From: Deltaproteobacteria bacterium
GTDB lineage: Bacteria > Myxococcota > Kuafuiibacteriia > Kuafuiibacteriales > Kuafuiibacteriaceae
Reading direction: 5' to 3'
DNA length: 64,000 nucleotides
Assembly (NCBI GenBank): GCA_040218735.1
Contig: JAVJQW010000027.1
Coordinates: 27,134 to 91,133 of the forward strand
Made by a program: the position numbers and the translations under genes. The notes below the pieces were generated by a model. It worked only from the letters and a program-made list of their open reading frames with translations, was not told the origin of the DNA and ran no database searches. Each line of letters opens with the position of its first letter. Position 1 is the stretch's first letter. Of this stretch, positions 59,511 to 64,000 are shown in pieces.

Positions 59511-60719
59511 TTACGACTTTTCGACGAACGCCGCGAGCGCGTCCCGCGCGGCGCGCTCACCCGCGAGGAGTGATGTGAGCCGTTCGTGGAGTCGCCCGCG
59601 CAGCTCGGCAGCGAAGGCCGCGTCGAGCGCGTCGTTGGCCGCGTCCTCGAGCGCCGCGAGCGCACGCGGGTCCGTCGGCGACCCCTTCGCGAGGAGCTTC
59701 TTCGCGCGACCGAGCACCGGCGGGCCCGCGAACACGTCGTCCACGAGTCCACGCCACGCCTCGCCGTTGGCTTCGACGACCGCCGCGGCTTCGACGAGCG
59801 CGGGTGCCTTCGTCGCGCGGAGGAACTCGGCGTACATCGGGCGGAAGCCGGCGCCGTCCGTGGAGGCGTGCACCCACGCGTAGATCTGACGGAGCCCGCC
59901 GAGCAGTCCGTAACCCGCGCCGAACAGCCGCGGCCACCCCTTGGCGTCGCCGTCGTCGTCGACCAGGCGCGTCCACTTCTCGAGCGCGGCGAGGCCGAAG
60001 TTCTTCTTGGAGCCGCCGAGCACGACCTCGCCGTCGAGGTCCGCGACACATCGGCGGACGGCGATACGAACCGCGTCGTCGTTCGGCGCGCGGCGCTCGC
60101 CCAGTCCGACGATGCGGTGTTTCTGTTTCTTCACCGCGGCGCGGGCCGCGGCGAGCCTGTCGAGCGGCACTTCGATCGCGCCGGCGCGGCAGTCCTCGAC
60201 GCCCGCGACGCCGTCCTCGACGTCGTGCACCACGACCACCCACGGCGTCGCGCCGCCCATCGCGTCGAGGCCGAGCAGCGCCTCGCGTCCGACCCAGCAG
60301 ATCACCGGCCCGGCTTCGAGTGCTTCGAGGAGCTGGCGCTCGGCCTTCTTCGCGGACGTCGCTTCGGCGACGACGGCCTCGTAGCCGAGCCCGTCGAGCG
60401 CGCGCTCCACGAACGTCGCGTCGTAGGCGTACTGCGGGTTGCAGCGCGTACCGATGTACACGAGCGGCGGGGCGCCCGCGTACGTGAACGCGTGGTACTG
60501 AAAGCTCACGCCGCCGCCGAGCCCGAGGAGCCACGCTTCGCTCGGTGCGTCGGGGCCCGCGAGGAGGCGCGTCAGCGCAAACGTTTGATCGTGTCGGGCG
60601 CGGGGCGGTGACTTCTTCGCGAGCTCACCGAGCAGCGCTGCGCGCGCGGTCGCGTAGCGCTCTTGGGTGCGCGCCATGCGGGCACGGACGATCTTCTTGA
60701 AGGCACGGTCGCGGGTCAT
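59511..60719 (-). CDS. BtrH N-terminal/DUF4872-like protein with a basic N-terminal helical extension
   Basis: SEAWLLGLGGGVSFQY, LEAGPVICWV, GFRPMYAEFL; N-terminus MTRDRAFKKIVRARMARTQERYATARAALL. Confidence 0.8.
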   Translation of the reverse strand: MTRDRAFKKIVRARMARTQERYATARAALLGELAKKSPPRARHDQTFALTRLLAGPDAPSEAWLLGLGGGVSFQYHAFTYAGAPPLVYIGTRCNPQYAYDATFVERALDGLGYEAVVAEATSAKKAERQLLEALEAGPVICWVGREALLGLDAMGGATPWVVVVHDVEDGVAGVEDCRAGAIEVPLDRLAAARAAVKKQKHRIVGLGERRAPNDDAVRIAVRRCVADLDGEVVLGGSKKNFGLAALEKWTRLVDDDGDAKGWPRLFGAGYGLLGGLRQIYAWVHASTDGAGFRPMYAEFLRATKAPALVEAAAVVEANGEAWRGLVDDVFAGPPVLGRAKKLLAKGSPTDPRALAALEDAANDALDAAFAAELRGRLHERLTSLLAGERAARDALAAFVEKS

Positions 60720-60900
60720 GTCGAATCCTCTTCTGTCGCCACCGACACGCCGGTCCTGCCCCCGTCCGCGCCCGGACGTTCGAAAAGGTTCGAGTACCGC
60801 TCACCCGAGGATTTCGCTCCCCTTTGCCGCCTCCGGGGGCCCTGGCAGGCGGGCCGCGTGCGGTTGGGCGCGGGTGATGCGCCGCCGACGAGGCTACGCG
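60720..60900 (-). ncRNA. putative structured cis-regulatory 5' leader RNA
   Basis: Nested stems UCACCCG/CGGGUGA, CCGCCU/AGGCGG, GGGGA/UCCUC, UCGAA/UUCGA, CGUCCG/CGGACG; alternative AAUCCUC/GAGGAUU pairing over the SD. Confidence 0.6.
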
Positions 60901-60966
60901 CCGCGCGTCGTGATTCGCAAGGGGCGGGTGGACGAACCGCGGACGAGTCGTCATGCTGAGGGCGTC

Positions 60967-61124
60967 GTGAACCGTCTCCAGCCCCGCATCGCCGCTATGG
61001 CCATGCCCCGCCCGCGCCGGGCGGTCCGGGCTGGAGCACGCTGACCGCGAGCTCCTCTCGGTCCCCGGGCGCGGGCCTATCCCGCCGCCGCTCATCACCC
61101 GGGACCGAACGAAGGAGCTTCGCC
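60967..61124 (+). promoter_or_regulatory. metG leader: uORF plus RBS-sequestering multibranch hairpin
   Basis: uORF 60967-61044 (..AAMAMP..); GAGCTCCT/AGGAGCTT and TCGGTCCC(C)GGG/CCCGGGACCGA stems; unpaired CTCATCA. Confidence 0.6.
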
Positions 61125-62501
61125 ATGACGACCTATCTGATCACCAATGCCATCGCTTATGTGAACGGGCCGCCGCACCTCGGCCACACCGTGGGCCTGC
61201 TGCAGGCCGACGTACTCGCGCGGCAGGCGCGCGCCGCCGGCCACGAGGTGCGCCTCACCACCGGCACTGACGAGAACAGCCTCAAGAACGTGCGCGCCGC
61301 CGAGGCCGCTGGGGTCTCGGTGCGTTCGCTCGTCGACGAAAACGCCGCGCGGTTCCGCGCGCTCGAAGAGCGCCTCGGTGTCGCTTCGGACTGCTTCGTC
61401 CGCACGGCGGACGCGAATCACGCCGCGGTCGTCGAGCAGCTCTGGCGGGCGTGTGCCGACGACCTCTACCGCCGGAGTTACCGCGGCCTGTACTGCGTGG
61501 GGTGCGAGCAGTTCTTCGCGGAGGCGGACCTGGAAGACGGCGTGTGCCCGGAGCACCGCGTCGCGCCCGAGCTCGTCGAGGAGGAGAACTGGTTCTTCCG
61601 TTTGTCGAAGTACCGAGACGTTCTACTCGAGCGAATCGAGTCCGACGCGATCCGGATCCGCCCCGAGAAACACCGTCGCGCGATCCTCGCGTTCCTCGCG
61701 GGCGGGCTGGAGGACCTCAGCGTCTCCCGCTCCGTCGAACGCGCGCGAGGGTGGGGCGTCCCGGTGCCGGACGACCCCTCGCAGGTCGTCTACGTCTGGT
61801 TCGACGCGCTCGCGAACTACTTCACGAGCGACCCGGACTACTGGCGTCGCGCCGACGAACGCATCCACGTGATCGGGAAGGGCATCACCCGGTTCCACGC
61901 GGTGTACTGGCCGGCGATCCTCCTCGCCGCGGGTGAGCCGCTCCCGACGTGTATCTACGTGCACGACTACATCACGGTCGAGGGCAACAAGATCGGCAAG
62001 TCGCTCGGCAACGTCGTCGACCCCGACGCGATCGTCGACACCTTCGGCACGGAGGCGCTCCGCTACTACCTGTTGCGTCACCTCCGCGCGACGAGCGACG
62101 GCGACTTCTCGCGGGAGCGTCTGGTGACCGCTCGCAACACCGAGCTCGCGGACCGGCTCGGGAACCTCTTGTCGCGCACCACGAAGCTCGCGTCGAAACA
62201 CGATGGGGTACCCGCGGCGGCGCCCGATCTGTCGGAGGCCGCGCCCTTCGACACCGCGGGGGGCCTCGACGCGATCTTCGCGGAGGTCGACGCGCTCAAC
62301 CGCTTCGTCGACGCCGAGGCGCCGTGGAAGTTGCTGAAGTCCGACCGGGCGCGCGGTGAAGCGGTCGTGGCGGAGGCGCTCGGACGCATCGCAGCGATCG
62401 GCCGCGCGCTCGCGCCGTACCTGCCGGCGACGGCGGCGAGGATCGAAGCGGCGCTCGCCGTCCCGGTCCGCGCGGCGCCCCCGCTGTTCCCTAAGACTTA
62501 G
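61125..62501 (+). CDS. metG: methionyl-tRNA synthetase, short form
   Basis: YVNGPPHLGH (HIGH), TGTDE, CVGC..CPEH knuckle, YVWFDALANY, HAVYWP, KIGKS (KMSKS-like); AAGGAG RBS. Confidence 0.93.
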   Translation: MTTYLITNAIAYVNGPPHLGHTVGLLQADVLARQARAAGHEVRLTTGTDENSLKNVRAAEAAGVSVRSLVDENAARFRALEERLGVASDCFVRTADANHAAVVEQLWRACADDLYRRSYRGLYCVGCEQFFAEADLEDGVCPEHRVAPELVEEENWFFRLSKYRDVLLERIESDAIRIRPEKHRRAILAFLAGGLEDLSVSRSVERARGWGVPVPDDPSQVVYVWFDALANYFTSDPDYWRRADERIHVIGKGITRFHAVYWPAILLAAGEPLPTCIYVHDYITVEGNKIGKSLGNVVDPDAIVDTFGTEALRYYLLRHLRATSDGDFSRERLVTARNTELADRLGNLLSRTTKLASKHDGVPAAAPDLSEAAPFDTAGGLDAIFAEVDALNRFVDAEAPWKLLKSDRARGEAVVAEALGRIAAIGRALAPYLPATAARIEAALAVPVRAAPPLFPKT

Positions 62502-63403: not shown

Positions 63404-63415
63404 CGCGACATTCTA

Positions 63416-63575
63416 GTCCGAAGCTCGCCCCCGGAGGAGGCGTGTCTGAGGAGTGTGCCAAGCGCTCCCGCGAAGCGGGAGGGCGTTATGGTCTATTCCG
63501 AAGCTCGCCTCCGGAGGAGGCGTGTCTGAGGAGTGTGCCAAGCGCTCCCGCGAAGCGGGAGGGCGTTACGGTCTA
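63416..63575. repeat. 2 x 80-bp tandem repeat, each copy with a REP-like CTCCCGC-GAA-GCGGGAG hairpin
   Basis: Units 63416-63495 and 63496-63575 differ at 3 positions; hairpins at 63465-63481 and 63545-63561. Confidence 0.9.
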
Positions 63576-64000
63576 GGAGGCCGTATCGGATAGCCGGGGT
63601 GGGAGTGCCCAGGTCCGGCTTCGCTTTTGGCGTCGGCCGGGGACGCTCTTCCGGTCAGAAGCCGTTCGTCTCGCCGGGTGTGGCCCCTCGGCTTCGCTGT
63701 TTGCCGAGGCGGGCGAGCCGAACTGATTCCCTACGGAGAGGTCCCCGCCCGCCGCCATCGCTCCGCTTCTCGAGTTGCCGCTCACCAGCGATCTCATGAG
63801 TGGAGTGACCCGGGGAGCTTCGATCCGACGCCCCGCCAATCGCGACCCGCTGCCCAGGCGCCCACTCCGCTCCGACATCGGGCGCGGCGACCTCGGTTCG
63901 GCTTGCTTTGCGACCGTCCGGCGCGGGGATCGCGTTGCGACGCTCGGCAGTACCTGGGCGCGTCGGCGGGGCGGTCCGGCTGTCGGAATCGCCGCGCCCG

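Follow-up and report, generated by a model that had tools for sequence, protein, structure and literature searches.

How a gene for methionyl-tRNA synthetase (MetRS) is controlled when it lies behind a short upstream open reading frame (uORF) with closely spaced Met codons and a hairpin over its own ribosome-binding site is the question raised by a 64,000-nucleotide stretch of DNA from Deltaproteobacteria bacterium, phylum Myxococcota (contig JAVJQW010000027.1, positions 27,134 to 91,133). This whole stretch is called the window below, and positions refer to it unless another locus is named. An earlier sequence-only reading had proposed for this leader translational autoregulation by MetRS, by way of a mimic of the tRNA-Met anticodon loop, and/or control by ribosome stalling. 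The conserved Met uORF and the interlocking hairpins speak for the stalling part, while autoregulation through an anticodon mimic did not hold. We propose that the leader is a ribosome-mediated leader-peptide attenuator, which would sense charged elongator tRNA-Met and control an auxiliary MetRS gene, metG. As judged from sequence comparisons and modelled folds, we put the probability of the sensor at roughly 0.7 and are less confident about the exact output step, with an output that is probably translational. This reading is preferred because the Met codons are conserved, the hairpins are mutually exclusive, the ribosome-binding site is buried, the leader is conserved among strains, and the gene is a spare MetRS copy.

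The metG product scored 361 bits against TIGR00398 (cut-off 336) and contains the Pfam domains tRNA-synt_1g and Anticodon_3, i.e. the anticodon-binding domain is present. The same genome, of 11.6 Mb and high GC content, also encodes a housekeeping MetRS of 675 amino acids that is of E. coli type and scores 827 bits against NF001100; the 458-amino-acid protein is 28% identical to it. The housekeeping gene starts 17 nt past an upstream ORF and has no leader. When 40 relatives were searched, the best or sole MetRS match in each was either the paralogue of the window or the long housekeeping type, and within the family the paralogue was found in only 4 of 20 genomes. Because the long enzyme is so different and occurs in the same genome, and because the paralogue is so sparsely distributed, we conclude from these comparisons that the leader stands before an auxiliary, anciently diverged second MetRS copy and not before the housekeeping gene.

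To follow the uORF across orthologues, 80 loci of this MetRS subfamily were collected from one-genome-per-species contigs and another 80 from metagenomes. An upstream region was scored as positive when, 300 to 41 nt upstream, two Met codons lay adjacent or one codon apart (MM/MxM) in a frame stopping within 25 codons. Less than 300 nt of upstream sequence led to the removal of 4 of 84 genome loci (the 80 together with L001-L004) and 7 of 80 metagenome loci. At a GC content of at least 0.55, tandem Met codons were present in 35 of 45 genome loci, as compared to 1/45 reverse complements, 0/44 regions far upstream and an expectation of 1.7 from dinucleotide shuffles. The metagenome loci of this GC class gave 24 of 34, with 2/34 reverse complements, 4/29 far-upstream regions and 1.5 expected. 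Below 0.55 the frame was found in 4 of 35 genome loci (2.5 expected from shuffles) and in a single one of 39 metagenome loci (reverse complement 1/39, far upstream 1/33, shuffles 2.9). Over all GC contents, the totals were 39/80 for genomes and 25/73 for metagenomes. The three closest orthologues of the window (L002-L004; 54-58% protein identity) each have a short upstream ORF holding Met-x-Met, as does L033; in the metagenomes no relative was closer than 51% protein identity. Upstream of the housekeeping-type metG of relatives, tandem Met codons occurred in 2 of 18 regions (4 of 22 loci were unscorable). These two, L009 and L021, come from two genomes of the window's phylum and may reflect chance or a separate Met leader. 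On this evidence, a uORF with Met codons is the only feature that has been conserved among orthologues of several phyla.

In a FastTree phylogeny of 84 subfamily members and four outgroup rows, the window fell into a clade of 11 rows (support 99), comprising the window, the three family orthologues, a Myxococcales metagenome-assembled genome (MAG), two other Proteobacteria and four Rhizobium. A Met uORF is present in every one of these 11 rows. Sister to them is a clade of 26 Actinomycetota rows (support 99), 20 of which were flagged for a Met uORF, plus variants. Almost no Met uORFs were seen in the half of the MetRS tree that holds the Candidate Phyla Radiation and Archaea. The leader also goes together with a spare enzyme: in all ten leader-bearing genomes tested there were two MetRS genes above the family cut-off, while among five genomes whose copy lacks the uORF, three have a sole MetRS, one has two, and one has one and a fragment.

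The leader peptides come in two styles. In the actinomycete style, about ten codons are followed by Met-Met-Pro-Arg, and the frame ends there or four codons later; in the other, seen in the window and in Myxococcota, Chloroflexota and metagenome members, Met-x-Met(-x-Met) precedes a longer tail rich in Arg, Pro and Ala. Two Actinomycetota loci, L051 and L057, have a uORF of about 24 codons some 60-130 nt upstream of metG with two separated Met codons, each after Arg-Arg, which the tandem rule does not count. Pro-Arg recurs behind the Met codons of Actinomycetota, Rhizobium and the window, which would fit a nascent-peptide arrest, in which a peptide of the form M-(x)-M-P-R-x-R halts the ribosome once a small molecule is present (be it an antibiotic, methionine or S-adenosylmethionine (SAM)), as with ermC or tnaC. 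We regard this as very improbable, as the short uORF forms stop two codons past the Met pair, Pro is changed to Leu in one strain contig of the window, and the Met codons are the sole invariant feature of the peptide. Moreover, L083, L098 and L087 have other residues past Met-Met (Ala-Pro, Thr-Pro and Ala-Arg, respectively) and yet keep, by compensating bases, the small hairpin that begins there, which suggests that selection acts on the RNA in these loci and not on the peptide. A pattern search for M-x-M-P-R-x-R in the window's genome (G000) gave three other matches, at C61:476756-476776, C64:49149-49169 and C70:321353-321373, versus two matches for a control pattern.

The sequence features that had been listed for the leader in the window, i.e. 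its stems, small hairpin, CTCATCA, uORF and bracket, are all present. GAGCTCCT (61049-61056) is complementary to AGGAGCTT (61113-61120) through seven Watson-Crick pairs and one G-U pair, and this helix covers AAGGAG. Within it, TCGGTCCCCGGG (61059-61070) pairs with CCCGGGACCGA (61099-61109) with one base bulged, and a small GCGGG/CCTAT/CCCGC hairpin lies at 61071-61085. The bracket around the uORF is formed by CTCCAGCCC (60976-60984) and its complement GGGCTGGAG (61028-61036). RNAfold recovered the proposed burial of the ribosome-binding site as the hairpin 3:4 (Table 1), the stability of which is, taken alone, modest for DNA of ~75% GC. The gene's status as a second MetRS copy was new relative to the sequence-only reading, and so was the stronger hairpin 2:3, which is exclusive with both of the hairpins that had been described. 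In 2:3, the 5' arm of the sequestor, together with its anti-Shine-Dalgarno (anti-SD) sequence GAGCTCC, is taken up by pairing with the 3' part of the uORF. The outer stem of hairpin 1:2 encloses two small hairpins, the first of which contains the Met codons. Neighbouring hairpins of the series 1:2, 2:3 and 3:4 share an arm and are therefore mutually exclusive, each beats its shuffles, and the regulatory codons lie in region 1. As modelled, this four-region layout is that of a classical attenuator.

Table 1. Positions and properties of the metG leader elements and of metG in the window.
Feature	Positions	Strand	Properties
Candidate promoter	60929-60957	+	−35-like TGGACG (60929-60934), 17-nt spacer, −10-like CATGCT (60952-60957); by eye
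Leader ORF (uORF)	60967-61044	+	GTG start, 25 codons, TGA stop; ATG at 60997 as alternative start
Hairpin 1:2	60973-61040	+	Outer stem 60973-60984 with 61028-61040; −43.1 kcal/mol, z −3.91, 0/200 shuffles as good
Putative sensor codons ATG GCC ATG (Met-Ala-Met)	60997-61005	+	Met codons at 60997 and 61003
Hairpin 2:3 (anti-sequestor)	61011-61075	+	−49.2 kcal/mol, z −4.34, 0/200 shuffles as good
Hairpin 3:4 (sequestor)	61047-61123	+	Buries ribosome-binding site AAGGAG (61112-61117); RNAfold −43.6 kcal/mol, z −2.66, 2/200 shuffles as good
CTCATCA	61091-61097	+	Unpaired, strain-variable stretch
Auxiliary short MetRS gene (metG)	61125-62501	+	458 amino acids; HLGH and KIGKS motifs; C-terminal tRNA-binding domain absent

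Variation among strains was assessed over 60850-61250 with contigs of four DNA metagenome runs. In run X8, 12 of 401 positions differed; they fall into 60908-60944 and 61148-61214 and leave 60945-61147, with the leader, free of changes. Leader changes in runs X2 and X4 were confined to 61079, in a hairpin loop, and 61095 (T>A), and those of a small X3 contig to 61079 and 61092 (T>A). Another, low-depth X3 contig showed three synonymous changes in the uORF: one disrupts 1:2 at its outermost U-A pair, another lies in a loop, and by the remaining one a C-G pair of 2:3 becomes U-G. The Pro-to-Leu change, at an unpaired base, is found in this contig too, and the SD-like GAGGG before the GTG is missing from it. 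In all runs the stem bases of 3:4 and the Met codons were unchanged, and 61079, 61092 and 61095 are unpaired positions. It could be argued that GC-rich DNA folds well in any case and that the uORF is a fortuitous open frame, and the z-score of 3:4, taken alone in such DNA, would agree with this. We give chance next to no credence, since Met uORFs exceed all controls ~15- to 20-fold in both independent collections, two further hairpins were matched by none of their shuffles, and one strain has an unchanged leader between flanks that do differ.

The same strains bear on the proposed anticodon mimic. By that proposal, MetRS would bind CTCATCA as it binds the anticodon arm of tRNA-Met and repress translation in the way of E. 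coli ThrRS; the sequestor hairpin 3:4 does contain a CAT triplet among its unpaired bases. However, CTCATCA does not sit in a 7-nt loop closed by a stem, and two of the three substitutions in the sequestor region fall inside it: CAT becomes CAA through 61095 T>A in near-identical strains of two runs, and 61092 T>A occurs in one run, while the stems remain intact. Nor is the mimic conserved in homologous leaders, as a 7-nt NNCAUNN loop closed by 4 bp or more was found in 1 of 64 relatives versus 1.4 expected from shuffles. As far as sequence analysis reaches, the anticodon-mimic reading is refuted, and we consider its chance of being correct to be very slight.

In the mechanism that we infer, ribosomes translate the uORF and stall within it, the RNA then changes its fold, and it is translation that responds, not the termination of transcription. 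The transcript would begin at or directly before the uORF. When Met-tRNA is plentiful, ribosomes would traverse Met-Ala-Met to the stop codon and leave, upon which region 2 would pair with region 1 and region 3 with region 4, burying the metG ribosome-binding site (OFF). When Met-tRNA is scarce, because the cell is starved of methionine or because the housekeeping MetRS fails or is inhibited, the ribosome would stall on the Met codons and occupy region 1. Region 2 would then pair with the anti-SD region 3, leaving region 4 and the ribosome-binding site open for translation of metG (ON). We modelled the ribosome as a block that no helix may span. With the first Met codon in the A site, the RNA is free from 61011 onward, 2:3 is the structure of minimum free energy (MFE) whether or not region 4 has been made yet, and only a 5-bp local hairpin holds the ribosome-binding site. 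With no ribosome, or with a ribosome at the stop codon, 3:4 forms.

The leader RNAs of relatives differ from this arrangement at the output end. A hairpin with a T-rich tail, of the kind known from classical attenuators, follows the uORF in 44 of 64 related Met-uORF leaders, and is absent in the window, L002 and L003. Three Chloroflexota loci (L046, L052 and L074) have both Met uORFs and T-tailed hairpins. Since most relatives have such terminator hairpins, termination was probably the ancestral output. In these 44 relatives, the 5' arm of the terminator is paired before the 3' arm is made with a probability of 0.75 when the ribosome is stalled versus 0.38 when it is at the stop codon. A covariance model (R1) built from 20 actinomycete leaders found 16 further metagenome leaders at E below 1e-12; its best matches to Rhizobium leaders were at E 0.2-0.6, and it gave no match at E ≤ 1 to the window, L002-L004 or L033. 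RNAalifold on the 20 actinomycete leaders retained only two nearly invariant hairpins (15 pairs, 3 with compensatory changes). By these comparisons the relatives share the sensor, a short ORF with Met codons, and have stable hairpins downstream of it, whereas the RNA sequence itself is not conserved. In actinomycete alignment A2 (columns ~146-190), CGGAGCC pairs with GGTTCCG directly before the metG ATG, past the terminator, and encloses a GGAGG ribosome-binding site, so that these leaders may combine termination with masking of the ribosome-binding site. By eye, a TANNNT box stands 6-10 nt before the uORF ATG in L032, L060, L064, L082, L092, L099 and other actinomycete loci, a position which suggests that the uORF is leaderless there.

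A rival reading of the window keeps the same sensor and gives it a different output: Met-codon stalling would prevent premature transcription termination, and burial of the ribosome-binding site would be secondary. Termination would then be Rho-dependent on the C-rich untranslated leader, or 3:4 would act as a terminator without a U tract. The T-tailed hairpins of the relatives support this, as does the composition of the unpaired part of the leader, which is C-rich and G-poor; the Myxococcales MAG locus L033 likewise has a long CA-rich spacer. That spacer, of ~90 nt at ~1380-1470 of L033, C/A-rich and G-poor, separates the leader terminator from the metG ribosome-binding site and by its appearance could serve for Rho loading or as an unstructured standby site. 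We consider termination unlikely as the output in the window, which together with L002 and L003 lacks any T-tailed hairpin, and where the ribosome-binding site itself makes up the 3' arm of the last hairpin. As 3:4 has no U tract, the leader is not a classical transcription attenuator.

Other sensors of tRNA-Met charging were looked for as well. An Rfam E-value scan of 60500-61400 gave four matches, all at E ≥ 2.6 and of the miRNA/CRISPR noise kind. Over this interval there was no T-box (RF00230) match at E ≤ 10 and no match to the SAM riboswitch models, in line with the earlier statement that neither is visible in the leader. Rfam scans of related loci at the gathering threshold (sets of 12 and 6) gave no matches. 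In a Chloroflexia MAG, the leader of the orthologue (L054, 1138-1407) aligns over its full length with the T-box model at 46.1 bits and E 4e-9, below the Rfam cut-off of 93, and has AUG in the specifier position. At the same position in L086, also Chloroflexia, the same GGGTGGTA box was recognised by eye only. A T-box-like leader in Chloroflexia and a Met uORF elsewhere would thus mean that different lineages put a tRNA-Met charging sensor before this MetRS gene.

Several results weigh against the translational attenuator that we prefer. With the second Met codon in the A site, 2:3 is the MFE structure only until the 3' arm has been made, after which 3:4 is slightly better (−54.9, full length). 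In a cruder model, which forbids pairing of the 29 nt covered by the ribosome and nothing else, the ribosome-binding site remains buried in both stalled states (probability of being unpaired, 0.15) and is partly open with the ribosome on the stop codon (0.40). The start codon of the uORF is uncertain, being a GTG preceded by the SD-like GAGGG that one low-depth strain contig has lost. MetRS charges initiator tRNA as well, and a severe shortage of Met-tRNA would also reduce uORF initiation, favouring OFF. A U tract or T-rich tail after 3:4 was looked for and none was found, nor was any terminator-like site on the + strand of the window leader. The leaders of L002-L004 are not alignable with that of the window and fold differently, and the logic of L002 is ambiguous. 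Among the 44 relatives with terminators, the arm pre-pairing of a shuffled-segment control was 0.68, and 31 of 44 were above their own control mean, a small excess among kin that are not independent. Finally, the equilibrium MFE structures of Rhizobium and actinomycete leaders always retained the terminator, at every ribosome position.

The behaviour of the cruder model corresponds to a positive coupling, in which ribosomes that finish the uORF melt the anti-SD arm and open the ribosome-binding site of metG, the Met codons being incidental or even lowering expression at low Met-tRNA. The rise in accessibility with a ribosome on the stop codon favours this possibility, and so do the 4 nt that separate the stop codon from the stem. 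For this reason the attenuator mechanism is not rated higher. The coupling nevertheless appears improbable to us: it leaves the conservation of tandem Met codons, the strong 2:3 alternative and the terminators of relatives unexplained, and its logic is contrary to homeostasis and to the Chloroflexia leader with its sub-threshold T-box likeness.

The remaining features of the locus concern its expression and surroundings. The uORF lies on the same strand as metG and ends 80 nt before it. The candidate promoter (Table 1) weakly suggests a transcript beginning a few bases upstream of the uORF. Both hexamers are intact in the contigs of the four metagenome runs, in which the spacer varies in sequence and keeps its length, and this constancy may give weak support to a start directly before the uORF. 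Similar boxes were seen by eye upstream of the uORFs in L002-L004. A scan for sigma-70 and terminator consensus sequences found neither the promoter nor a terminator on the + strand. A search for RNA runs containing this DNA listed none. The neighbours of metG encode a BtrH_N/DUF4872 protein, a DksA-like protein, a pseudouridine synthase, a beta-lactamase-like protein, SulP and Hsp70; profile annotation of the adjoining genes gave no hint of a biosynthetic-cluster signature. Near the end of the window, an intergenic 80-nt unit is tandemly repeated (63412-63576; 2.1 copies, 95% matches).

The Met leader marks an entire clade of auxiliary MetRS genes whose hosts, soil and marine bacteria, include Streptomyces, Amycolatopsis, Nocardia, Rhizobium and Myxococcota. 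It yields a hypothesis for when spare MetRS enzymes are used, which bears on a possible tolerance of MetRS inhibitors, and the Met codons offer a simple experimental handle in tractable hosts such as Rhizobium leguminosarum and Streptomyces. In the variant found in the window, the usual terminator is replaced by a hairpin that hides the ribosome-binding site, so that one sensor would have been rewired to a different output. By analogy, the Met-codon leader and the short MetRS could form a self-contained, horizontally mobile 'charging-rescue' cassette, an inducible module of target-replacement resistance, although we hold this to be a tentative idea that is rather doubtful. If true, the cassette would stay silent until the resident MetRS fails through a natural inhibitor or stress damage, and would then switch on a MetRS of another type, on which the insult has no effect. 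It would be analogous to trpRS1 and indolmycin, and spread over Actinomycetota, Rhizobium, Myxococcota and other Proteobacteria.

Leader-peptide attenuation is textbook knowledge for trp, his, leu, thr and phe, and in E. coli pheM-pheST a synthetase gene is under this type of control. Attenuators of translational type are known from ermC and cat, where a ribosome stalled in the leader ORF remodels hairpins and opens a buried downstream ribosome-binding site. The mechanism proposed for the window would be alike in that stalled-ribosome remodelling frees such a site; it differs in that stalling is caused there by the drug and the nascent peptide, and here most likely by a shortage of charged tRNA at Met codons. 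The E. coli thrS operator requires anticodon-arm mimics that are bound by ThrRS. Like that operator, the leader of the window is structured and overlaps the ribosome-binding site of a synthetase gene, whereas no anticodon-arm mimic of this kind is seen in it. T-box leaders share with it the signal of uncharged tRNA and the class of target gene, and the Chloroflexia orthologue has a T-box-like leader; T-boxes, however, bind the tRNA directly and do not need translation, and the window is without a T-box match.

The auxiliary, antibiotic-resistant TrpRS of S. coelicolor (trpRS1) is reportedly, going by the title of a 2010 paper of Vecchione and Sello, under ribosome-mediated attenuation with a transcriptional output. 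In both cases the synthetase is an auxiliary paralogue, a housekeeping enzyme is present as well, and induction goes, or in the window would go, through a leader peptide that contains cognate codons. They differ in the amino acid, tryptophan there and methionine here, and in that resistance to an inhibitor is known there and conjecture here.

Leader-peptide attenuators have been described for trpS and leuS of Streptomyces in Seliverstov 2005 (PMC1262725), in which methionine operons are stated to show no conserved RNA structure. For S. lividans, the main text of PMC8079986 gives leaders before alaS, thrS, trpS and leuS and a Met-containing leader before metNIQ, and describes other Streptomyces leader-peptide ORFs as leaderless. 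Full-text literature searches, which covered main texts (the supplementary files of PMC8079986 could list further leaders), did not find a Met-codon leader before a MetRS gene; PMC2965389 and PMC4833913 contain zero occurrences of MetRS-gene terms (metS, metG, methionyl), and a methionine-reading leader-peptide attenuator is absent from Rfam 15. The synthetase attenuators of pheM-pheST, Streptomyces and S. lividans resemble the present leader in having a leader ORF with cognate codons and competing hairpins upstream of a synthetase gene, and the leaderless ORFs of Streptomyces have their counterpart in the uORFs of the actinomycete relatives, which are apparently leaderless too. The present leader differs from the known synthetase attenuators in that Met is sensed, that the target is a second MetRS copy, and that the last hairpin, without a U tract, holds the ribosome-binding site. 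What these comparisons point to as new is the tie to an auxiliary MetRS clade over several phyla, with a sub-threshold T-box-like alternative in the same gene family, and an output hairpin without a trailing U tract that conceals the ribosome-binding site.

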